Below, piece by piece: positions 1,663 to 12,095 of a DNA stretch of 28,906 bases. The DNA is from Escherichia phage CBA6. The notes under the pieces are model-generated. The model was not told the origin of the DNA, ran no database searches, and worked only from the letters and a program-made list of their open reading frames with translations. The DNA lies in sequence record KM389305.1; one strand, 5' to 3'. Made by a program: the position numbers and the translations under genes. Numbering within the stretch: the first letter of the stretch is position 1; every line of letters begins with the position of its first letter.

Positions 1663-3573
1663 ATGTCTAATATGATTGATATTGAACGAAAATACAAAAA
1701 GCTCACTCACATAGAGCATATCCTTCTTCGCCCAGAGCGTCATCTGGGCAGTATCCGTTCAGCCGTTGGAACGACTTGGATATATGATCCAATAAAAGAT
1801 CAAGTTATATTCAAGGATAATTTTGAATATTCTCCTGCATTGATTAAACAGTTTGATGAAATTATCACCAACTCTGTAGATCATAGCAAAACGCCAGAAG
1901 GTAAAAGCCTCACAGAAATCACCATTACCGTTTCTCCTATGAATGGTCAGATCATCGTGGCTGACAATGGGGGTATTCCGGTTGTTAAACACGGGGAGAC
2001 AAAGGAATGGCTCCCTGAGATGTTATTTGGCTCCCTCTATGCGGGTAGCAACTTCAACGACGACGATGAAGAATACAATAACAAAAAATCAGGTGGGCAG
2101 AACGGTGAAGGGGCTTCACTGGTCAACGTATTTTCAAAATGGTTCCGTGTCACGACAAATGACGGGAAGAAGTCTTACACTCAAACATTTGAAGACAATT
2201 TGAGCAAACGTTCTAATCCGGTGATCAGTAATTTGAATGCCCCTGGGACGTCTATCGCATGGATACCTGATTATGCGCGTCTGGGTGTCAAAGGTCTTGA
2301 TCAAAATAACTTGTTGATGATCTATCGCCGCGCATTTGAAGTGGCTGCTTGTAACCCGTGCCTGAAAGTCATTCTGAACGGGAAACAAATCCGTATCGAC
2401 CGCTTTGGCCATTTTGTGGATTACTTTTGCCAAGGTTCCTCTGTTGATGAAACAGAGGAGTGGTCTGTTGCTGTTGCTCCTTCGCAGGGGACGTTTGTTC
2501 ATGCATCATATGTGAACAGTATCGCCACCCATATCGGTGGTCCTCATGTGGATTACGTTGCTGATCAAATCGTGGCGGCTATTCGGCCTCAGCTGGAGAA
2601 GAAGTTCAAGACCGAACTGCGCCCAGCAATGATTAAGAACCATATGATGCTCTTCATTTCGGCGGATATCAACAATCCACGCTTTGATAGCCAAACCAAG
2701 GAGCGCATGACGACTCCTGTTAGCCAGTTTGGCACGACCTACAAGCCAAGCGAACGTCTGATTCGTAAGGCGCTGGAGTTTGTTGGTGCTGGTCTGTCTA
2801 AGGAACTAGCCTCCCTTCGTAACGATAAGGAAGACGAGGAGTTTGAGAAGGCCAAGAAGGATATCATCAAGCGGGACTATCGTGATATCGAAAAGTATCA
2901 CCCAGCCACCAAGCGTGGTGATCGCTCTAAGTGTATCCTGGTGCTGACCGAAGGTGATAGCGCCTCCAACCCCATCCTCAATGCTCGTAACACTGAGACC
3001 ATCGGGTTGTTCCCTCTACGTGGGAAGTCTATCAACTGTCGTAATGCTACCCGCAGCAAGATCATGGCGAACGAAGAGTTCAAGAACCTGTGTACGATAC
3101 ACGGTGGTGCAGTCCCTGGCCAGCCACTTGATACGAAGCGCTATCCGTTCACTTTAATCGCCACCGATGCGGACGATGACGGCATCCATATCCGTGGGCT
3201 TCTGATCAACTTGTATTGCACGTACTGGCCGGAATACGTCCGTCAGGGTAGGCTGAAGCTCCTGCGCACTCCTTTCCTTCGCCTGTGGGCGGGTAAGGAA
3301 ATGTATGAGTTCATGAACCAAGATGAATACAATGCATTCCTGAAGACCCCAGCGGCCAAGAAGATCACGAAGAAGAAATATCTGAAAGGGCTGGGTGGCA
3401 ACAGTACTGAAGATTTCAAACGTATTCTAAACAACCTTGATGCGTATACTACAACGGTCGTATTGGACGATGAGTATGAAACGGCGTTAAACAACGGATT
3501 CAGCGAAGCGGCATCTGATTACCGCAAGACCTGGTTCAGTGATGTCTGCCTGTTTGAATCTGAGGATGAATAA
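1663..3573 (+). CDS. gp39: DNA topoisomerase II large subunit (GyrB-like ATPase plus toprim), T4 gp39 and gp60 equivalents fused in one ORF
   Basis: 636 aa; GHKL-type motifs EIITNSVDHS and ADNGGIPV; toprim motifs LVLTEGDSASNP and IATDADDDGIHIRG. Confidence 0.9.
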   Translation: MSNMIDIERKYKKLTHIEHILLRPERHLGSIRSAVGTTWIYDPIKDQVIFKDNFEYSPALIKQFDEIITNSVDHSKTPEGKSLTEITITVSPMNGQIIVADNGGIPVVKHGETKEWLPEMLFGSLYAGSNFNDDDEEYNNKKSGGQNGEGASLVNVFSKWFRVTTNDGKKSYTQTFEDNLSKRSNPVISNLNAPGTSIAWIPDYARLGVKGLDQNNLLMIYRRAFEVAACNPCLKVILNGKQIRIDRFGHFVDYFCQGSSVDETEEWSVAVAPSQGTFVHASYVNSIATHIGGPHVDYVADQIVAAIRPQLEKKFKTELRPAMIKNHMMLFISADINNPRFDSQTKERMTTPVSQFGTTYKPSERLIRKALEFVGAGLSKELASLRNDKEDEEFEKAKKDIIKRDYRDIEKYHPATKRGDRSKCILVLTEGDSASNPILNARNTETIGLFPLRGKSINCRNATRSKIMANEEFKNLCTIHGGAVPGQPLDTKRYPFTLIATDADDDGIHIRGLLINLYCTYWPEYVRQGRLKLLRTPFLRLWAGKEMYEFMNQDEYNAFLKTPAAKKITKKKYLKGLGGNSTEDFKRILNNLDAYTTTVVLDDEYETALNNGFSEAASDYRKTWFSDVCLFESEDE

Positions 3574-3574
3574 G

Positions 3575-4906
3575 ATGGTTGCCAAGAGCATTACGGTCAG
3601 TCGGTTCGTCAATACCGACCATAAAGAGTTTTCAATTGTCAACAGTATCCGTCAGGTTCCTCAGATCATTGATAGCCTGAAGCCCAGCCAGCGGAAGATT
3701 CTTTTCGCCGCGCTGGAGTATGGGAAGGAAGAGATCGTAGATCGCCTGGGCATGTTTGCTGCAGCGCGTACCAACTACAAATCCGGCGGCGATAACATGG
3801 GCGGCACTATCATCAAGATGGCCCAGGCGTTCCCTGGCTCTAACAACATCCCTTACTTCGACCGAGATGGCCAGTTTGGTTCCATCATGTCTCCGGAAGC
3901 CAGCTCAGCCCGATACATATCCGTGTCGGTGTCTGAGGTGACACGCAAGATCTTCCGCAAGGAGGATGAAGGCATTCTCACCTATCACTATCTTGGTGAA
4001 GAGCGGTTGGAGCCTAAGTTCTTCCTCCCTGTCATTCCCATGTTCCTGGTGAACGGGATGCAGGGTATCGGCTCGGGGTACGCAGCTGACACCCCATGCC
4101 ACAGCATAGAGTCCGTTTTCGCCAGCCTGAGAGCACTTCTCCGTGGCGAAGACCCTACGGACTTAAAACCGTACTGGAATGGATATAAAGGAGAGACAGG
4201 CTATACTGAGGAAGGAAGAGCATACAGTCGCGGCATCTTCAAACGCATCAATGCTACAACCCTTCACATCACCGAGGTCCCAATTGGTTGGTTCGCTAAA
4301 TCGTATGAGACCAAAGTTCTGTTGCCGTTGTATAAGGCGGGTTTGCTCACTGAATACGCCAATGACACGACCGAAGACGGCTGGGACATTACTGTCGTGT
4401 TCAAACGTGGTGAATTGTCTAAGCTGGATGATGCACAAATCGAGCAGATGTTCAAACTATACTCTGCGAACAAACCCGTCTGGACGGCATGGGATGAAGA
4501 TGGTGTCATCCGACGTTATTCTGGGTGGAAGGAGATGCTGCTTTCCTTCTTCAACTATCGTTTGATCCGTTATGAAGACCGTCGTCAATACCTGTTAAAG
4601 GAGATGACTGATAAAATTCATCGCCTGAACAACCGTGCATTATTCATCAGTTGGGCTGTGGTTACGGATATGCGTCGCAGCATTACAGAACTGAAAGCGT
4701 TGTTTCAAACGGATTATCCAGATTTTGATGGTGATCTTGATGAATTATTCAAGATGTCTTTATCATCAATCACGTTAGACGCACGTGAACGATTGTTGAA
4801 TCAGATAAAGAATCTGGAAGAACAAAGAGAAGAATTAAATAACAAACAAGACATTGATCTCTACAATGATGATTTAGATGATCTTGAAAAGGCATTAAGC
4901 CTATAA
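3575..4906 (+). CDS. gp52: DNA topoisomerase II medium subunit (GyrA-like breakage-reunion subunit)
   Basis: ATG at 3575 two nt after the gp39 stop with GAGGATGA upstream; SSARYISVSVSEV is consistent with the active-site Tyr region; adjacency to gp39. Confidence 0.85.
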   Translation: MVAKSITVSRFVNTDHKEFSIVNSIRQVPQIIDSLKPSQRKILFAALEYGKEEIVDRLGMFAAARTNYKSGGDNMGGTIIKMAQAFPGSNNIPYFDRDGQFGSIMSPEASSARYISVSVSEVTRKIFRKEDEGILTYHYLGEERLEPKFFLPVIPMFLVNGMQGIGSGYAADTPCHSIESVFASLRALLRGEDPTDLKPYWNGYKGETGYTEEGRAYSRGIFKRINATTLHITEVPIGWFAKSYETKVLLPLYKAGLLTEYANDTTEDGWDITVVFKRGELSKLDDAQIEQMFKLYSANKPVWTAWDEDGVIRRYSGWKEMLLSFFNYRLIRYEDRRQYLLKEMTDKIHRLNNRALFISWAVVTDMRRSITELKALFQTDYPDFDGDLDELFKMSLSSITLDARERLLNQIKNLEEQREELNNKQDIDLYNDDLDDLEKALSL

Positions 4907-4910
4907 ATCT

Positions 4911-4928
4911 GGAGGGTGAATTCCCTCC
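4911..4928 (+). promoter_or_regulatory. GC-rich stem-loop GGAGGG-TGAATT-CCCTCC between gp52 and the next gene
   Basis: Perfect 6-bp inverted repeat 5 nt after the gp52 stop; not followed by a T-run; about 20 nt upstream of the ATG at 4949. Confidence 0.35.
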
Positions 4929-4948
4929 AAACCTGTGAGGGGTTCACC

Positions 4949-5227
4949 ATGTTTGTATATTTCCGCAGTCTCTCATTACTGGCATACGTCTATTGGCTGT
5001 TTGATATTCTGTGTCCTCGATTCATCAAAGAGGAAGTTGCCTTCGTAAATTACGAAGGACAAGAAGACGTGTGGATACCGTTGTGTGCCCTTTCTGACGT
5101 TACCGAATTGGATGATGTTGGTATGGTTGGGACCATGCGTTCTTTTAATCTGTTCGGGTTTGCCCTCTTCCCTAAATTAATTGGGGATTTACGCCCTTAT
5201 TTTCCTGATGAAGAAGTGGGGGCGTAA
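4949..5227 (+). CDS. hypothetical protein
   Basis: ORF 4916-5227; start at ATG 4949 (MFVYF) is preferred because GAGGGG lies 6 nt upstream and the earlier ATG sits in the hairpin. Confidence 0.4.
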   Translation: MFVYFRSLSLLAYVYWLFDILCPRFIKEEVAFVNYEGQEDVWIPLCALSDVTELDDVGMVGTMRSFNLFGFALFPKLIGDLRPYFPDEEVGA

Positions 5228-5282
5228 TATGTCAATGGAGATGGTTGATATCCCCGAACCTGAAATATGGATAGACTAGATT

Positions 5283-5696
5283 ATGAAATTACTCGGTTAT
5301 TTTCGTTCTTTACCCACTGGATCTCCTAATGGGGGCCAGTTATATTCTGAAGTCAAAGGGGATGTTGACGACACCCATATCGCCCTATATGCTCGGGATA
5401 TACCAGACCCAACTAAATTTGACCGCCGCGTAGTGGCCGCTGCCAACAGATATGGTGATGTCATCGTTGTAAGCGCCCGTCACCACGACAAATTAATGAA
5501 TGCGCAACTGAAACGATTGAAGGAAGCAGGTGTTATCGAAAACACCCGCACGCGTGAACAAGGGTTTATCGATAACTATGGGCAATGGATGTCTAGGGAA
5601 GAGGCGGCTATTGTAGCCCGTGAAGCTGGACAAACCAATCAAGTTCGTTTGAAGAACACTCCTTTCCGTGAACTCTTTTCCGAAGACCTCTATTGA
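5283..5696 (+). CDS. hypothetical protein (137 aa)
   Basis: Clean ORF with ordered-looking composition; conserved-looking blocks YGDVIVVSARHHD and QGFIDNYGQWMSREEAAIVAREAGQ; no family could be assigned. Confidence 0.5.
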   Translation: MKLLGYFRSLPTGSPNGGQLYSEVKGDVDDTHIALYARDIPDPTKFDRRVVAAANRYGDVIVVSARHHDKLMNAQLKRLKEAGVIENTRTREQGFIDNYGQWMSREEAAIVAREAGQTNQVRLKNTPFRELFSEDLY

Positions 5697-5744
5697 AGAA
5701 AATGGCGGTATAATTGCCGCCTAACCCCATATTGAGATAATACC

Positions 5745-5969
5745 ATGGCAAATGAAATTGGAGATATTGCCCAGTTCCGTGCTATTTCGCGACGCCTGAA
5801 ATCTTATGGACTCATCATAGAAGAAATAGATGAAGATGTCCAAGGCGTATTGGAAGGAATGTTTGGGAGTACAGTTGGAACTGAATTGTTTGAACTTTTA
5901 AAAATGGCGGCTGACAATCAATTCGTCGAATACATCTCTGAAAATGCTATTAATGGTCTGAATAAATGA
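5745..5969 (+). CDS. hypothetical small acidic protein
   Basis: 74-aa ORF; TATAAT-like hexamer at 5709-5714 upstream. Confidence 0.4.
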   Translation: MANEIGDIAQFRAISRRLKSYGLIIEEIDEDVQGVLEGMFGSTVGTELFELLKMAADNQFVEYISENAINGLNK

Positions 5970-6202
5970 ACGAATTATACGAATTTGAACGCGCATATGA
6001 ATCGGCTTCTGTTTCAGGATATATGCAACGTTTGTATCAAGAAATTTGCTTTCGTTTGATGTCGCGCGGGATATCTGTTAATCGTGTCATGTCACAACCA
6101 GACAGTTTTATTATTACACTCACCGACCATCGCCAGAATATGTGTATCATTCAGGTCAGTTGTGTCGACAACGAAATTATACAATGGAGACGTTACGCAT
6201 GA
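5966..6202 (+). CDS. hypothetical protein
   Basis: 78-aa ORF; start overlaps the upstream stop and its own stop overlaps the macro-domain start (ATGA), suggesting translational coupling. Confidence 0.4.
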   Translation: MNELYEFERAYESASVSGYMQRLYQEICFRLMSRGISVNRVMSQPDSFIITLTDHRQNMCIIQVSCVDNEIIQWRRYA

Positions 6203-6804
6203 CCACTTATATTATCACAAATGGCGATTTATTAAAAGCCGCCACGAGTTTCAATCTTATCAATGCCTTTGCTCACGGCGCAAATTGTTGGTCTGTAATG
6301 GGCGCGGGTATCGCCAATCACGTTCGATTGAATTTCCCAGAGATTTACCGCGCCGACCAATTAGATGAACGTGGTCCGGAACAGCGCTTGGGAAACATGT
6401 CCTATGCGTTTGATCATGACACTGGTGTCTGGGGATTCAATTTGTATACTCAATTTTACCCAGGTCCCAATGCTCGCATGCCATCTATCATTAGCTCAGT
6501 CCAGATCATGTTTGAACAAATTCATGATATCGTTGAAGCCAAAGCTGATGAAACTGTCTATGTTGGTTTGCCCGCCATCGGTTGTGGTATTGGTGGCTTG
6601 AATCTCACACATGTGGTGGGCCAGATTAACAAAATCGCCGAAACCATCTTTGAAGATACTCGCCGCCGCGTGGTCCCAGTATTCTATATTCGGGAAGGGG
6701 ATGGATTCGAAAAGGATTTACAAGAACTCTCTCAAATGATCGACTTTGGGATCTCGGTTGTTCCTAATGAAGAAGACGTCATCGAAGAGGAAAGCATCGG
6801 ATGA
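6199..6804 (+). CDS. macro-domain protein (ADP-ribose binding / ADP-ribosyl hydrolase family)
   Basis: Start at ATG 6199 in an ATGA overlap; motifs ITNGDLLKA, NAFAHGANCWSVMGAGIA and VYVGLPAIGCGIGG match the macro-domain signature. Confidence 0.55.
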   Translation: MTTYIITNGDLLKAATSFNLINAFAHGANCWSVMGAGIANHVRLNFPEIYRADQLDERGPEQRLGNMSYAFDHDTGVWGFNLYTQFYPGPNARMPSIISSVQIMFEQIHDIVEAKADETVYVGLPAIGCGIGGLNLTHVVGQINKIAETIFEDTRRRVVPVFYIREGDGFEKDLQELSQMIDFGISVVPNEEDVIEEESIG

Positions 6805-7145
6805 AATCTGAAGTGACGGAAGAAATGTTGGCTAAAGCCGTTCTTCATCCCAAGGTACGGTTTGCATTTTTGCCCACTCGTCTACATGACGGTAATTGGG
6901 TGTGGTTGGAGCATTATGTTCGCGCTCCTATCGGTCTCTACGCCCAACTGCGTTACGGTGGCGAAGTAGAATTGAAACAATATCGCGTCGGTGGAGGGAT
7001 GGGTGGTTTTGATGATGGTGAATATTTTCCTCATCGCAATTTCGCCATGAACGATAATTCATATTTCAGAGTTGAATATGCCACCGCTTGTGGGACATAT
7101 CCTTTGAAACTTCTTTTAGAGAAAGCGGGGGAAACCGATGTATAA
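6801..7145 (+). CDS. hypothetical protein
   Basis: 114-aa ORF coupled to the macro-domain gene by an ATGA overlap. Confidence 0.45.
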   Translation: MKSEVTEEMLAKAVLHPKVRFAFLPTRLHDGNWVWLEHYVRAPIGLYAQLRYGGEVELKQYRVGGGMGGFDDGEYFPHRNFAMNDNSYFRVEYATACGTYPLKLLLEKAGETDV

Positions 7146-7770
7146 ATCTAATTTCTTGGCTGTCGCCGATAGCGAGACTCTGGGGCGCTGGGACGATGCT
7201 ATTATGTTATCCTGGGCGCATACTATCGCCGACCTGACCAAACGCTACACTCTTCAGCAACTCGTTGAAGAGCGAACGACGTTCATAAAGTTGGATGTCA
7301 AAGAGCAGACTAAACTTGGCCGCGTCAAGGATCAGGGGACTGTTGAATGGTGGTTAGGTACGGGTAAGCGAAACCCGTGTGATGCTGCTCGCGCTGTCAG
7401 CCTGTACCCGACCGATCAGGACACCTCTATCTTCCAGCTGGCCGATGAAATCCGCAAAGGTTGTCATCGTCTTGGGATAGACCCGCGCTCGGTTGACTGG
7501 TGTGACCGAAACTTGTTTGATCTCCGCAAGGCCCAACATATCATTGAGGTGACATGTAAGCAGGACTCCAACGAGCCTTGGGATTACCATCACACCTTCG
7601 ACATCGTGAGCTGGCTGAAAGGCGTTGGGCAACAGGATCGTTATGCTGGTATCAAGGCTTGGGAACTGGAAGGCATGGTCTATCATGATCCTCGTTATGA
7701 CGCTGCTCTTGATTGGCTTCGTATTCAGAAGACCATGGAAGACCTGATGGGGCTAAAGGTAGAAGAATGA
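7138..7770 (+). CDS. dexA: DEDD-type 3'-5' exonuclease, DexA-like
   Basis: N-terminal LAVADSETLG (exo motif I), TVEWW, DPRSVDWCDRNLFD and HDPRYDAALD (H-x4-D) agree with T4 DexA as recalled from memory. Confidence 0.55.
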   Translation: MYKSNFLAVADSETLGRWDDAIMLSWAHTIADLTKRYTLQQLVEERTTFIKLDVKEQTKLGRVKDQGTVEWWLGTGKRNPCDAARAVSLYPTDQDTSIFQLADEIRKGCHRLGIDPRSVDWCDRNLFDLRKAQHIIEVTCKQDSNEPWDYHHTFDIVSWLKGVGQQDRYAGIKAWELEGMVYHDPRYDAALDWLRIQKTMEDLMGLKVEE

Positions 7771-7844
7771 AACTTTCTATCTTCTCCTGGGTATTCACGA
7801 TCACGACGTTCATCATAGTGTGTGTTCAATATTGGGGGTTATAA

Positions 7845-8135
7845 ATGTTCTTTGAAATTGTCGGGGTGATTACAACATGCGTCTTCGTCATTATAACTCT
7901 GAGTGTTGTGTATTATTCGTTTATTCATCCAATTTTTCAAGCCATTAGTATCGCACGTTGGCTTACAGCTTGCTCCTTGGCAACCGGAAATAAACCACCC
8001 ACCCTAAAGGAAAGATGGAGTTTCTTCAAATGGGGGTACGAAATCGGTGGAGTTAGGACAACCCGCTACTCCAACAATATTGGAGAATGGTATGGAATAG
8101 GCCGATGGAACCTTTTCAAATCTGATGAAGAATAA
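7845..8135 (+). CDS. small membrane protein
   Basis: GGGGG SD before the ATG; N-terminal hydrophobic segment VGVITTCVFVIITLSVVYY. Confidence 0.45.
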   Translation: MFFEIVGVITTCVFVIITLSVVYYSFIHPIFQAISIARWLTACSLATGNKPPTLKERWSFFKWGYEIGGVRTTRYSNNIGEWYGIGRWNLFKSDEE

Positions 8136-8155
8136 GCCCCGAAAGGGGCTTTTCT
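8135..8155 (+). terminator. rho-independent terminator
   Basis: AGCCCC-GAAA-GGGGCT stem-loop followed by TTTTCT immediately after the stop at 8133-8135. Confidence 0.65.
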
Positions 8156-8196
8156 ATATCTTGACTAAAGTATCATTGTTTAACCAACAAACATAG

Positions 8197-8216
8197 GGGG
8201 TTTCCGATGAAACCCC
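8197..8216 (+). promoter_or_regulatory. hairpin sequestering the SD and start codon of the first gene of the 8207-10785 cassette
   Basis: GGGGTTTC-CGAT-GAAACCCC: perfect 8-bp stem whose left arm is the GGGG Shine-Dalgarno and whose loop and right arm contain the ATG at 8207. Confidence 0.45.
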
Positions 8217-8530
8217 GTCACTCGGACAATAGGATGAAAGAACAAGAAATCATTCAGCACTGTATCAGACTGGGAACATTAAAACCCCTATATCAGGCTT
8301 TGCGTTTTAATGCTATTAAGTTCAAGCCATTATCGAGAACTATTGCGACATTCTTTGCCATGCGTTCTGTTGGAAAAACGATTTTCTTTGAGCATGACAT
8401 TTATTTTTATACAAAGATTAATGGCGAAGATTTAGATAAAATGATTTTCGTGAACGACGACAAAAATATGAAGATAAAGGTGGAAAACGAATTGCGTAGA
8501 ATCAATGACTCTTTGAGGGGAATAATTTAA
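8207..8530 (+). CDS. hypothetical protein (first gene of cassette)
   Basis: 107-aa ORF with SD GGGGG; no recognisable motif. Confidence 0.45.
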   Translation: MKPRHSDNRMKEQEIIQHCIRLGTLKPLYQALRFNAIKFKPLSRTIATFFAMRSVGKTIFFEHDIYFYTKINGEDLDKMIFVNDDKNMKIKVENELRRINDSLRGII

Positions 8531-9192
8531 TGGAAATCGTTGTCTCTGTATCTGATTGTGAATTTGTGTACCGTGTCCTTCAAGGGGATGCACCTTTGCC
8601 GGAAAATAATCAAGAAGTGACATTGTTTTGGTCAGGCGGCGTGGATAGCACATACATGTTGGTTTGGTTATTATCGAAAGGTTATTCGGTTCATACTGTG
8701 TATTGCCATCTGGAAAATAATAATTTCAAATCCAAACGTGAGAATTGTGCGCGAAATAAAATTTATAATTGGATCAACAAGAATGCTCCGCTTCTTATGC
8801 ATCGTTGGACTCATCACCAAGAACCGATTAGTAGCATTCACGTGCCGGACGGCGGGTTTCGTGCGTGTTTAGCACAAGCCCCGATATGGTTATTAAACAC
8901 ACAATTTAAGGGCCGGAGTTTGCCTCCCACATACATATTGGCATATGTCAACGGGGACGACGCGATCCACTGGATCCCAGCTTTCAATAAGGTCATCGAA
9001 GGATACAATATGATGACAAGAGACGGGGAAAGGCCAATTGAAATTTTATATCCTTTGATTAGTCTCAAAAAATCATGGTTTTATCACCATATGTCTCCAA
9101 TACATGGTTTGATGACGTGGTGTGAAATGCCAATTTTGAGAAAAGACTGTAATTGCCCTGCATGTACCCGCCATCGCTATGAGTTATCATAG
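8530..9192 (+). CDS. PP-loop ATP pyrophosphatase, QueC-like (7-cyano-7-deazaguanine synthase family)
   Basis: PP-loop TLFWSGGVDSTYMLVWLL; C-terminal four-Cys cluster TWCEMPILRKDCNCPACTRHR matching the QueC zinc-site pattern; about 220 aa as in QueC. Confidence 0.55.
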   Translation: MEIVVSVSDCEFVYRVLQGDAPLPENNQEVTLFWSGGVDSTYMLVWLLSKGYSVHTVYCHLENNNFKSKRENCARNKIYNWINKNAPLLMHRWTHHQEPISSIHVPDGGFRACLAQAPIWLLNTQFKGRSLPPTYILAYVNGDDAIHWIPAFNKVIEGYNMMTRDGERPIEILYPLISLKKSWFYHHMSPIHGLMTWCEMPILRKDCNCPACTRHRYELS

Positions 9193-9205
9193 GTGAGATG
9201 AGAAG

Positions 9206-9547
9206 ATGAAACCATCTGTTGTGGTGAATGATATCACCATATTGATAAATCTGATCAAGGACATTTTCCCACAACAGGTGGATGTTGAGTATGTGGGAAA
9301 GAACGGGAAGTGCTATCAAGTCGCCCTGGTTCTCAAACACGTATATCCTCAGGCAGAGATTCATTACAGCCAGATTGAAGGGCATGTGTATACTCTTATC
9401 GACGGGAATTATTACGATATCGATGGTATCCATTTCAGTGTTCCTCCAGATACTTGTTTGTTGGATCACAACAGAGGCCATAAACCCCACCGCTGGCATA
9501 AAGGGTTTGTAGGCATCCCAATATTAGAATGGATGAGGAGGCCATAA
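9206..9547 (+). CDS. hypothetical protein
   Basis: 113-aa ORF; His-rich C-terminus [11 protein letters not shown]; no family assigned. Confidence 0.45.
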
Positions 9548-9548
9548 A

Positions 9549-10109
9549 ATGGCAGGAATTGTCAAGTACCTTGGTGACACTCACCTCGGGCATAAAAAAG
9601 TCTTTAAACCTCGTGGATTCGATACTCAAGAATCCCATGATGCTGCGGTTATAGACAGCATATTCCAAGGGCTGAAATCTCGGGATGTCCTTGAACTGGC
9701 GGGGGACATCTGCTTTATCGGCGCTGAGGGGTTCATACGCCTGATGCGCGAAGGAGCCAAGCGGAACATTGATGAGTTCAAGCGCCGCCCCGTTCCCGAT
9801 GAATGGCGTCCGAACTTTATCATCAGGGTGGCACAGGGCAACCACGACAGTTTCAAAATGTTAATGCGGTTGTATCTGGAGGGCTGGATTACATCCTTTG
9901 GTGCCATGTATGAGCGGGATACTTCTGTCGGTCGGATTCTGACTACACACGTTCCGTATCAATTAGATCGTTGGGCGTATAATATCCACGGACATCTTCA
10001 CGAAAAGATCCGCGAAGAACGTGAATATCTGAACTGCAGCTGGGAACAATTCAAACGACCTGTTACTCTAGCTGAATTGTTATACACAAATTTAGGAATC
10101 ATATTATGA
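9549..10109 (+). CDS. metallophosphoesterase (calcineurin-like, small MJ0936/YfcE-type phosphodiesterase)
   Basis: Metal-binding motifs in canonical order: [32 protein letters not shown]. Confidence 0.65.
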
Positions 10110-10438
10110 GAATATTCTTTCCTGGACAAAAGGTTCCCGAAGAAATAGAAAAGGTCGAGTTGTTCGGTTATAAAAGCGGTGATCCGTTCCTGCGATTTTC
10201 TTCACCATGTATTGTAAAGCGCAATCGCGACGGGCATTATGTGCGCCCAATCATTCTCATGGGTTCTGTCATGACGCTGAGAGCTAAAACGGATTCGGTT
10301 GTTATTACTGGAAGTCCCAACATACCCAATGGAAAGACTACGCTAAATTGCAAGCCTATCCTGTCGTCTTGGATGTTAATTGGATTTCTATCTGTAGTCC
10401 TGTCTTATCGTTACCTTACTGACTTGGGGATCTTATGA
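10106..10438 (+). CDS. hypothetical tail-anchored membrane protein
   Basis: ATGA overlap with the upstream gene; C-terminal hydrophobic helix [17 protein letters not shown]. Confidence 0.45.
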
Positions 10439-10785
10439 AAAAGCCAAGAATCACAGGACATCAACTCTGTGTCCTTCTGGGAATGCTGAATTTTGAAACC
10501 CATGATGATCGACGCCTTTGTCATTGGTATTTCAATCCGAAGTCTTGGACGAATGAAAAGGGCAATACAGTATGGACATTCCATGCCCCTCCGATTGCTG
10601 GTGGGTTTCGTTCTGTAAAAGGTGATCCGTGGGATACACGTTCAGGGCAATCATTATTATCTAAAGGTCTGATCGAACCTGCGTTCACTATGGTTCATGA
10701 TGACTCTGAAGAGTATAAGCATTGGCCGAAATCAGAAGTAACGTTCTACCGCCTGACTGAACTTGGACGAGCTTGTACTGAATAA
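10435..10785 (+). CDS. hypothetical protein (last gene of cassette)
   Basis: 116-aa ORF with ATGA overlap to the upstream gene; followed by a terminator. Confidence 0.45.
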   Translation: MKKPRITGHQLCVLLGMLNFETHDDRRLCHWYFNPKSWTNEKGNTVWTFHAPPIAGGFRSVKGDPWDTRSGQSLLSKGLIEPAFTMVHDDSEEYKHWPKSEVTFYRLTELGRACTE

Positions 10786-10803
10786 TAATTTATTTTATTG
10801 AAG

Positions 10804-10834
10804 AAGGGGAAGGTATACTTCCCCTTAATTTATT
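10804..10834 (+). terminator. rho-independent terminator
   Basis: AAGGGGA-AGGTATACT-TCCCCTT stem-loop followed by AATTTATT. Confidence 0.55.
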
Positions 10835-10847
10835 GGGAGAGACAAAC

Positions 10848-11165
10848 ATGATTTCATTAAAAGAAATGTACGAACGCCTCGAAGAACTGAAATCTAAAGA
10901 ACGTCTGTATTCAGAAGAGAATGCAGAAATGTCAGATCTTATCGAAAAAATTGCGTTGCGTGAAAAGTATCTTCAACGTTATATCAATCATCCACCTCAT
11001 ATGGTTGAGCGCATGTCTACAATTCTCGAATTGGACAACAGCGGTGTAACAGGCAAAGACCTGATTGTCAAAGAGATTCATTCCATGGTGTCCCTCGGTC
11101 AGATCTTTGGCCGTGCCGACCAGGATGACATGATCTTTTTACTTGAAAAGGCTCTGGTAAAATAA
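10848..11165 (+). CDS. hypothetical protein
   Basis: ORF 10833-11165; start at ATG 10848 (MISLKE) is preferred because GGGAGAG lies upstream; helical charged protein. Confidence 0.45.
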   Translation: MISLKEMYERLEELKSKERLYSEENAEMSDLIEKIALREKYLQRYINHPPHMVERMSTILELDNSGVTGKDLIVKEIHSMVSLGQIFGRADQDDMIFLLEKALVK

Positions 11166-11686
11166 TGGCTATCAAACCACGTATGATGTTTGCTCATATG
11201 CGATCAGCTGCAGCATATGGAGTAACCAGTTATGCTCGGCGTCTGCAAGTCGGTTGTGTTATCGTAAACCCTGAAACTGATCAGCCTGTGGCTATCGGAT
11301 GGAACGGAACGCCTCCTGGCATGCCGAATGTTTGTGAGATGGAACAACACGGGCAAATTGTTACAAACCCGTGTGTCGTTCATGCGGAGGAAAATGCTCT
11401 AATGCGTATCCCCGAAAATGCAGATGATTTCACAGGGTTGGTTATGTTTGTGACACATAGTCCTTGCCCTAATTGCACTCAAAAGATAATAGATAGCGGT
11501 AAAATCGATAAAGTATATTATCGTGAGCCATATCGTATTATGGATGGAATCAAAAAATTGATGAACGCTGGAATTGAAGTTTATCGGATGGTAGACGATA
11601 TGGCGATTCTTCAGCATGTTTTCGACTATCAAGGAGAAGTCGGATACGAACAAATCTTATCTAATCCTGACAAAGTAAGGAATTAA
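11165..11686 (+). CDS. cd: dCMP deaminase (deoxycytidylate deaminase)
   Basis: Zinc-binding CDA-fold motifs VVHAEENALM and HSPCPNCTQKI. Confidence 0.85.
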   Translation: MAIKPRMMFAHMRSAAAYGVTSYARRLQVGCVIVNPETDQPVAIGWNGTPPGMPNVCEMEQHGQIVTNPCVVHAEENALMRIPENADDFTGLVMFVTHSPCPNCTQKIIDSGKIDKVYYREPYRIMDGIKKLMNAGIEVYRMVDDMAILQHVFDYQGEVGYEQILSNPDKVRN

Positions 11687-11687
11687 A

Positions 11688-12095
11688 ATGCGTTACGTCG
11701 ACCGTATGCTGAGCGAAAATGAATATGTGGTTGCATTCACTCGTCCGACTTGGTGGAGTGGATTCTGGATTTATGTTCTCGTCGCTTTAACGATTATTCC
11801 AACATTTGGTTTCAGTTTGTTATTCCTGATCCCAACTATCTTGAATGTGATGACCACAGAATTCGCAGTCACCAACAAACGGGTTATCGTAAAACGAGGG
11901 TTTATCCGCCGTGATGCTGATGAACTTCGCCTGGGAAAAGTTGAGACCATCAAAGTGGATCAGTCCATCACAGGCCGTATTCTCAGATTTTCAACGATCA
12001 GTGTCATCGGGACAGGCGGTACTCGTTTGCTGGCCACAGGTTGTGCAAAAGGGAATGAGTTCCGTCAAAAAATTTACGAACGCCTGGTGGATTAA
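11688..12095 (+). CDS. membrane protein with bacterial PH-like (bPH) domain
   Basis: Two N-terminal hydrophobic helices followed by a bPH-like segment VTNKRVIVKRGFIRRDADELRLGKVETIKVDQSITGRIL. Confidence 0.5.
   Translation: MRYVDRMLSENEYVVAFTRPTWWSGFWIYVLVALTIIPTFGFSLLFLIPTILNVMTTEFAVTNKRVIVKRGFIRRDADELRLGKVETIKVDQSITGRILRFSTISVIGTGGTRLLATGCAKGNEFRQKIYERLVD

Follow-up and report, generated by a model that had tools for sequence, protein, structure and literature searches.

Genes between dexA and cd in a Vi01-like Kuttervirus: a probable mosaic of accessory genes including an orphan QueC-family protein and a small metallophosphoesterase

Background

QueC, the enzyme of preQ0 synthesis, and the ligases built on the same scaffold are the closest described relatives of the PP-loop protein treated here. 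In QueC of Escherichia coli the motifs YxQxHxxE, VPxRN, and YPDC as well as the tyrosine after the first zinc cysteine are essential (residues Y35, R99, Y131, and Y189; PMC13329287). Hutinet et al. 2019 found singleton QueC-like proteins in the phages ECML-4 and SFP10 that are unconnected to QueC in similarity networks, and proposed that these probably belong to a different subfamily within the N-type ATP pyrophosphatases (PMC6884629). Among the metallophosphoesterases, the closest described proteins are T5.034 and Aq_1665 of Aquifex aeolicus. For mycobacteriophages, an early metallophosphoesterase with nuclease and counter-defence roles has been reported (PMC12287305). Here we compare with these systems a block of six genes, ORF1 to ORF6 (8234-10785, + strand; ORF, open reading frame), in a stretch of 28,906 nucleotides from Escherichia phage CBA6 (sequence record KM389305.1), in the following called the window. 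ORF2 encodes the PP-loop protein and ORF4 the phosphoesterase.

Over the 4.6 kb around the block, the identity is 99.5% to Mooltan and FSL SP-063, both Salmonella phages, and 99.2% to Vi01. Nearly all of the 203 phage records that match this stretch belong to Kuttervirus or other Ackermannviridae, and by sequence identity the source genome is that of a Vi01-like Kuttervirus (Ackermannviridae). Therefore, an earlier note on this DNA, made from the letters alone, was wrong in viewing the block against the background of T4. The names dexA, cd, and others that sound T4-like denote early genes common to the Ackermannviridae. The six ORFs correspond to Vi01_022 to Vi01_024 and Vi01_026 to Vi01_028 of Vi01, and lie among early + strand genes in nucleotide-metabolism surroundings (dexA, cd, MazG, topoisomerase). 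More than 150 public genomes already carry annotations of these genes, and the orphan QueC-like gene has previously been treated in the literature. A 2024 review of the Ackermannviridae does not mention them, and the literature yielded nothing useful on crAss-like PP-loop proteins, an Ackermannviridae alpha hydrolase, phage YunG proteins, or RNA-seq of Kuttervirus early genes.

Gene content and recombination between dexA and cd

All six ORFs are present on the + strand where the earlier note had placed them, and their junctions are indeed tight or overlapping. ORF1 and ORF2 share a TAATG, spacers of 13 nucleotides and 1 nucleotide separate ORF2 from ORF3 and ORF3 from ORF4, and the ORF4/ORF5 and ORF5/ORF6 junctions are ATGA overlaps. 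The block lies between dexA and cd but abuts neither of them, because one further ORF intervenes on each side (7845-8135 between dexA and the first flanking hairpin, 10848-11165 between the second hairpin and cd). Every ORF of the six matches a PHROG family (E≤1e-42). In pairwise comparisons with Kuttervirus relatives, the ratios of nonsynonymous to synonymous divergence (dN/dS) are between 0.006 and 0.12, which equals the range for dexA and cd, at synonymous divergences of up to 0.65. The six ORFs are real genes under purifying selection.

The block is probably a mosaic of small accessory genes that were gained, lost, and recombined independently of each other between two conserved hairpins, and not one functional cassette. 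The earlier note had taken the six genes for a single discrete cassette inserted at this site, but features expected of a single operon or cassette are missing. A scan for sigma-70-like promoters between the first hairpin and ORF1 (8152-8233) found none, so a transcription unit of its own is unsupported. In addition, the gene content varies, each of the two enzymes is found alone, the genes do not co-occur outside the Ackermannviridae, and the divergence is mosaic.

The gene content between dexA and cd was compared in a matrix of eight Ackermannviridae loci and differs both between and within genera. Within Agtrevirus, EspM4VN has most of the block including ORF2 and ORF4, and AG3 lacks ORF1 and ORF2, has ORF3, ORF4, and ORF6, and encodes a phrog_1238 gene in place of ORF5. 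The Nezavisimistyvirus phiEa2809 has ORF2 but not ORF4. In the Taipeivirus 0507-KN2-1 the homologues of ORF2 and ORF4 directly adjoin, ORF3 is absent, and the downstream genes are different, and in the Miltonvirus 2050H1 three unrelated genes lie between ORF2 and ORF4. The Limestonevirus RC-2014 has lost ORF2 and also dexA. All that this Dickeya phage retains of the phosphoesterase is its final 22 residues (L003, 6001-6066; 100% identity), left behind when a larger piece of this variable region was deleted. Within Kuttervirus itself about half of the genomes have ORF1, and the others lack it by a clean deletion between AAATGA repeats. An extra gene, Vi01_025 (149 residues, phrog_17979, function-unassigned), lies exactly between the ORF3 and ORF4 homologues of Vi01 (L001, 5448-5897), with overlapping stop and start codons. 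It is also found in Mooltan, PS5, Matapan, and others, and is absent from this window (9547/9549 junction). The phage collection contains 100 records for ORF1, all from Kuttervirus, 201 for ORF2, 228 for ORF3, 697 for ORF4, 188 for ORF5, from Kuttervirus and some Agtrevirus, and 266 for ORF6, including Dickeya 20 and Klebsiella 44. ORF6 is the most widely retained gene of the block and is found in Kuttervirus, Agtrevirus, Limestonevirus, and Taipeivirus.

The divergence between close relatives suggests the same. When the region 6184-12095 of the window is compared with six relatives (L015-L020), adjacent genes differ sharply in their synonymous divergence from a single relative: it is 0.65 for ORF3, 0.27 for ORF4, and 0.14 for ORF6 with respect to L020, and 0.16 for ORF5, 0.54 for ORF6, and 0.08 for the gene that follows with respect to L017. 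Because of these jumps, the sequences point to frequent recombination within the block with breakpoints at gene boundaries.

Outside the Ackermannviridae the genes are not linked at all. For the PP-loop gene, 79 viral loci with relatives of its family, phrog_1550, were taken, of which 56 are distinct loci outside the Ackermannviridae. None of these 56 has any of the other five block genes within 5 kb of the PP-loop gene, iterated profiles included. In about 26 uncultured contigs (within L039-L084) the neighbourhood has a fixed order of an SNF2 helicase, an ORF of 120 residues, the PP-loop gene, and a family-B DNA polymerase of about 1,230 residues (for example L069, 1830-9520), an arrangement that no cultured phage of the collection has. 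In other contigs the neighbours occur once or twice each and comprise topoisomerase, RecA, a C5 DNA methylase, a TET-associated glycosyltransferase, and Mom, as well as dCMP deaminase, NUDIX, deoxynucleotidase, and nucleoside deoxyribosyltransferase-like proteins. The distant PP-loop genes stand in a replication and nucleotide-metabolism setting with no single recurring partner. No shared partner emerges either from the small ORFs immediately upstream of this gene, which were compared among Kuttervirus (ORF1), Taipeivirus, Miltonvirus, EspM4VN, and several uncultured lineages: all profile-profile probabilities between them are below 7%. T5-like phages encode the phosphoesterase alone. A conserved pair of a YunG-like protein (the ORF3 family) and the phosphoesterase was also considered, and was not seen in SSE121-type phages, another phage contig, T5, and Vibrio phage Va2.

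Several points weigh against a mosaic of independent genes. The six genes are probably co-transcribed, because they are co-oriented, their stop and start codons overlap, and hairpins stand on both sides, and in this particular phage they could cooperate. The direct adjacency of ORF2 and ORF4 in Taipeivirus points in the same direction. The replication-module context of the distant homologues may simply reflect the clustering of early genes, the presence and absence of the genes were judged from about 20 Ackermannviridae loci and from record counts and not from a full phylogenetic test, and the chemistry of both enzymes is deduced from their family membership. Taken at their strongest, the tight co-oriented packing between two hairpins, the early nucleotide-metabolism neighbourhood, the adjacency in Taipeivirus, and the intact active sites of both ORF2 and ORF4 would mean that the PP-loop enzyme and the phosphoesterase, possibly together with the small proteins, form one module, either for nucleotide or DNA modification or for the destruction of an immune signal (counter-defence). 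This was the suggestion of the earlier note, and we consider it unlikely. In related genera ORF2 is found without ORF4 and ORF4 without ORF2, unrelated genes split the two in 2050H1, neither the phosphoesterase nor other block genes accompany the PP-loop gene at the 56 distant loci, the phosphoesterase stands alone in T5-like phages, and the recombination breakpoints run through the block itself. A PADLOC scan matched nothing past the N-terminus of the PP-loop protein. Furthermore, the thymidine hypermodification of ViI (5-NeOmdU) has been reconstituted with gp67, gp160, gp226, gp243, and gp247 (PMC8989533). These proteins are encoded elsewhere in the genome, outside the block, and thus none of the block genes is needed for this modification. 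The counter-defence idea in particular has no support from linkage. The evidence therefore favours independent accessory genes, and the two enzymes are best considered one by one.

The metallophosphoesterase ORF4

ORF4 (9549-10109, + strand; 186 residues) was recognised as a phosphoesterase by the earlier note, rightly so, and its catalytic motifs are intact. It has the five motifs of the calcineurin-like superfamily (DxH, GD, GNH[DE], H, and GHxH) as GD10xH12, GD53, GNH99D, H134, and GH147xH149, together with the beta-alpha-beta-alpha-beta sandwich. From its matches to phrog_547 (E 1.4e-42) and, with hhalign, to T5.034 (97.8%, E 1e-12, 155 columns), it can be classified as an intact small binuclear metallophosphoesterase of the T5.034/Aq_1665 type and as a full-length homologue of T5.034. 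The nearest fold is that of Aquifex Aq_1665 (1XM7). The sequence identities are about 26% to T5.034 and 21% to Aq_1665, and in contrast to both of them ORF4 carries a helical insert of about 30 residues (residues 58-88). Because neither T5.034 nor Aq_1665 has a known substrate, no function can be transferred to ORF4. Many GenBank records label the protein as Ser/Thr protein phosphatase. This label does not hold, as ORF4 does not show the specific similarity to lambda PP and the PPP family that membership would require.

ORF4, an enzyme independent of ORF2, would use a two-metal centre to hydrolyse a phosphoester bond. That this bond belongs to host DNA, i.e. that ORF4 is an early nuclease like Gp48 or the nucleases Mre11, SbcD, and PdeM, is again improbable. 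A weak NCBIfam match to PdeM (E 2e-4) and the mycobacteriophage precedent (PMC12287305) would argue for it. Gp48 of A10ZJ24 and gp47 of Bxb1 are, like ORF4, early phage metallophosphoesterases with five motifs; they damage host DNA, and in Bxb1 the protein is the recombination directionality factor (RDF). However, they have 255 residues compared with the 186 of ORF4, the hhalign probability of a specific relation is only 5% so that the homology is at the superfamily level, and ORF4 is without a DNA-binding or capping domain. A direct link of ORF4 to this group was therefore rejected. ORF4 alone could take part in the degradation of immune signals, an idea which loses its main support because the pairing of ORF2 and ORF4 is not upheld.

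The PP-loop protein ORF2

ORF2 (8530-9192, + strand; 220 residues) is a stand-alone PP-loop ATP pyrophosphatase of a phage branch of the QueC family (phrog_1550; E 1.5e-76, residues 1-219). The PP-loop signature that had been pointed out before is present and intact. The SGGxDS loop is found as SGGVDS at residues 35-40, and the AF2 model (pLDDT 82.6) has the Rossmann-like fold of the superfamily. Close relatives are found only in Ackermannviridae-like phages (20 clusters), and among them are the Hutinet singletons: those from ECML-4 and SFP10, which are both Kutterviruses, are 99% and 92% identical to ORF2. A profile of the close relatives retrieves full-length matches of about 200-300 residues in 1,430 clusters at 50% identity, 645 of them at E≤1e-10, and the family phrog_1550 thus comprises at least 1,430 such clusters. 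All 54 of the sampled distant relatives belong to phrog_1550, and 50 of the 54 touch the QueC model of Pfam (PF06508) weakly. Across this wide family the SGGxDS loop, Y139, D143, K181, and four cysteines in the order C-x8-C-x-C-x2-C (C198-x8-C207-x-C209-x2-C212 in ORF2) are invariant, and N63, N64, E71, Q116, and E199 are nearly so.

Over its full length, cysteines included, the family profile aligns to QueC of Bacillus subtilis (E 1.5e-9) and to Cap9 (E 4e-9), compared with 3e-4 for TtuA. ORF2 shares with QueC (B. subtilis 3BL5, E. coli QueC, PF06508 cluster 1) the fold, the length of about 220 residues, the SGGxDS loop, the lysine of the PLxxxxK motif (K181), and the four-cysteine motif at the same place at the C-terminus. 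The four invariant cysteines align to the zinc cysteines of QueC, although their spacing is different, with C-x8-C-x-C-x2-C instead of C-x8-C-x2-C-x2-C. What is not shared is the substrate pocket. The family consensus contains Y..I.NN..K..RE and GYVxNDDA, is without YxQxHxxE, VPxRN, and YPDC, and has a glutamate (E199 after C198) instead of the essential tyrosine after the first cysteine. The QueC models of Pfam, NCBIfam, and PADLOC reach only the N-terminal ATP loop of ORF2. The earlier note had called the gene an orphan, and this holds: among the 208 annotated features of Vi01 there is no FolE, QueD, QueE, or DpdA/TGT. The sequence leads us to regard ORF2 as a QueC-family enzyme that is intact and belongs to a branch specific to phages, and the remodelled pocket implies that it is not a preQ0 synthase.

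The course of its reaction can be outlined by analogy. ORF2 would bind ATP on its SGGxDS loop, as every characterised member of the superfamily does, and would adenylate its substrate at a carboxylate or carbonyl oxygen, from which a nitrogen or sulphur nucleophile would then displace AMP. The four C-terminal cysteines would hold a structural zinc as in QueC. Because a conserved partner gene is absent, the substrate would be supplied by the host or by the general metabolism of the phage, and the neighbours of the gene in other phages would point loosely to DNA or nucleotide metabolism. We infer these steps, like the hydrolysis by ORF4, from the described relatives. A further-reaching proposal is that phrog_1550 is a widespread phage-only QueC branch whose chemistry or substrate would be new among PP-loop enzymes. 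Its members would be stand-alone ATP-dependent ligases or amidotransferases, and their substrate would be a nucleobase, nucleotide, or protein that is either supplied by the host or linked to replication. We put this forward tentatively, as one possibility that the present data do not make the likelier case.

Of the more specific functions one might assign to ORF2, that of a ligase like Cap9 or QatC, which would modify a phage or host protein at its N-terminus with a nucleobase-type carboxylate and thereby possibly interfere with Qat or type IV CBASS, seems quite improbable. Cap9 (type IV CBASS) and QatC are protein-nucleobase ligases. As in these proteins, a QueC scaffold would be reused in ORF2 beyond preQ0 synthesis, and a QueC fold has twice before been repurposed for protein modification. 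The full-length match of the family profile to Cap9 speaks for such a ligase, as does the zinc motif, which opens with CE as in Cap9 (CE(x)6CxxCxxC) and not with CY as in QueC. However, Cap9 has retained the pocket motifs of QueC (Y/FxQ(x)5E, YxDC, and RN), which are absent from the ORF2 family. The QueC model of PADLOC matches residues 26-82 only and there is no match to QatC, which with its about 400 residues has extensions that ORF2 does not have. In addition, ORF2 is encoded in a phage early region and the neighbours CD-NTase, QatA, QatB, and QatD are missing. A conserved partner does not exist, given that the upstream small ORFs are unrelated between lineages and that ORF1 is missing from about half of the Kutterviruses.

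A modifier of host or phage tRNA or of a nucleotide base, of the thiolase, lysidine-synthase, or GMP-synthase type, is equally hard to reconcile with the data. Foldseek placed the tRNA thiolases TtuA, the first match, and NcsA on top (E 1.5e-5), with TilS at about 1e-3 just outside the limit of E≤0.001, and there are weak Pfam matches of ORF2 to tRNA_Me_trans and ThiI. All structural matches have TM-scores of about 0.5, and the ranking of the model inside the PP-loop superfamily is ambiguous, which counts against a placement next to QueC. The sequence profiles, however, match QueC and Cap9 better, the difference being five orders of magnitude, with TtuA, NcsA, ThiI, and TilS at 3e-4 or worse. 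Unlike ORF2, these four proteins are about 300-460 residues long and additionally contain zinc-finger or RNA-binding domains or catalytic Fe-S clusters. The 220 residues of ORF2 leave out any additional RNA-binding domain such as THUMP or the C-terminal domain of TilS, and its cysteines align to the zinc site of QueC and not to the catalytic Fe-S site of TtuA and LarE.

Finally, a genuine QueC raising preQ0 for queuosine-tRNA or for 7-deazaguanine DNA is hardly conceivable, despite the public annotation 'QueC-like queuosine biosynthesis' and a PF06508 score slightly above the gathering threshold (24.5 versus 22 bits), since this match spans residues 33-72 only, the QueC equivalog model TIGR00364 scores 18.6 bits (residues 33-58 only) against a cut-off of 150.3, none of Y35, R99, Y131, and Y189 of the E. 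coli enzyme is conserved (E199 stands in place of Y189), the other genes of the pathway are missing, and the Kuttervirus singletons had already been set apart from QueC (PMC6884629).

Some further observations concern the PP-loop gene in other phages. L087 encodes two phrog_1550-type genes in tandem (4908-6244; 238 and 207 residues), and in L048 (4992-5831) and L076 (about 3067-3700) the gene appears to be split into two ORFs, by either a frameshift or a sequencing error. In replication genes beside the PP-loop gene there are also signs of inteins (L025, 5540-7573; L054, 1892-4870). An AAA ATPase has Hint and LAGLIDADG homing-endonuclease domains, and some SNF2 helicases have about 940-990 residues compared with about 600 residues and are candidates for containing inteins.

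The small proteins

The four remaining proteins had been described as without recognisable family. This is true of ORF1 and ORF6 in so far as they match PHROGs only, but ORF3 and ORF5 belong to Pfam families; all four are function-unassigned. Searches of PDB sequences with ORF1, ORF3 (as a profile), ORF5, and ORF6 gave no match below E 0.09.

ORF1 (8234-8530, + strand; 98 residues) belongs to phrog_9302 (E 4e-67). Its start most likely is the ATG at 8234 and not at 8207 where the ORF program had put it: the PHROG model aligns from residue 10, Vi01_022 has 98 residues, and relatives show no conservation upstream of 8234. The gene has a GC content of 33.7% compared with 44.6% for the window. The protein is 99-100% identical in those Kuttervirus relatives that encode it, while the synonymous sites differ by about 47% (dN/dS 0.006-0.012), a constraint equal to that of dexA. 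The protein identity of at least 95% had suggested a recent horizontal spread, which was rejected because so many synonymous sites differ. ORF1 is an old gene under strong constraint that many relatives have nonetheless lost by deletion. A small protein that is highly constrained yet dispensable is typical of host-targeting factors.

ORF3 (9206-9547, + strand; 113 residues) belongs to PF24591, Phage_YunG-like (E 3.8e-44). Invariant in the alignment are C36 (in GKCYQVAL), H60 (EGHVYT), D71 (YDIDG), and a cluster of the histidines H88, H92, H95, and H98. The order and spacing of cysteine, histidine, and aspartate resemble a papain- or transglutaminase-like triad. ORF5 (10106-10438, + strand; 110 residues) belongs to PF24594, DUF7618 (E 5e-55). 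It had been considered tail-anchored in the membrane, which is plausible given a C-terminal hydrophobic stretch at residues 82-100, but this stretch is borderline (Kyte-Doolittle 1.57). ORF6 (10435-10785, + strand; 116 residues) belongs to phrog_4677 (E 2.9e-64).

The flanking hairpins

The earlier note had described the block as bracketed by two intrinsic terminators. Two stable and conserved hairpins do exist, of which the first is likely and the second uncertain as a terminator. Hairpin 1 (8134-8151, + strand) has a 7-bp G+C stem, AAGCCCC-GAAA-GGGGCTT, followed by TTTTCTAT, and resembles an intrinsic terminator. It folds with -16 kcal/mol (z -4.2), which none of 200 shuffled sequences reached, and being palindromic it also scores on the - strand. 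Its stem is kept in Kuttervirus and AG3, and only the loop varies (GAAA, TTTC, and GTGA). The terminator-like hairpin 2 (10804-10826, + strand) has a 9-bp stem, AAGGGGAAG-GTATA-CTTCCCCTT, and a weak T tract, AATTTATT, and also folds with -16 kcal/mol (z -2.5). Its position is directly 5' of the next gene's Shine-Dalgarno sequence and start codon (ATG, 10848). Hairpin 2 is kept in Agtrevirus and Limestonevirus, and the AGGAGAG...CTCTCCT of Taipeivirus is a compensatory change. We are cautious about the terminators because the eight terminator-like sites in the region are not above the 4.8 +/- 2.5 expected from shuffling, and because of the poor T tract of hairpin 2. An Rfam search of 7000-12000 gave no match.

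The non-conserved ATG at 8207 lies inside a third hairpin (8197-8216), GGGGTTTC-CGAT-GAAACCCC (-13.1 kcal/mol, z -1.7), shortly 5' of the probable start of ORF1. The leader containing it is restricted to the Vi01-like subgroup, and S118-type phages have unrelated sequence there. Of two neighbouring genes, 6142-6804 encodes a Tk.4-like protein with a match to phrog_335 ('phosphatase', E 1e-73) and to no Pfam family, and 11688-12095, directly 3' of cd, encodes a bacterial PH-domain membrane protein (PF03703, bPH_2).

Conclusions

What this analysis yields in practice is a correction: the block consists of ordinary accessory genes of Kuttervirus that had been annotated before, and is not a new module of T4 type. 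In addition, phrog_1550 is mislabelled as 'queuosine biosynthesis' in many genomes. Should phrog_1550 really have a chemistry not yet described for PP-loop enzymes, this would explain both its placement between SNF2 helicases and DNA polymerases and the strong selection on the gene in Kuttervirus without a 7-deazaguanine pathway. Once the substrate of phrog_1550 or of a T5.034-type enzyme is found, hundreds of phage genomes would be re-annotated, and for phrog_1550 the QueC scaffold might then turn out to have been reused once more, besides in Cap9 and QatC.

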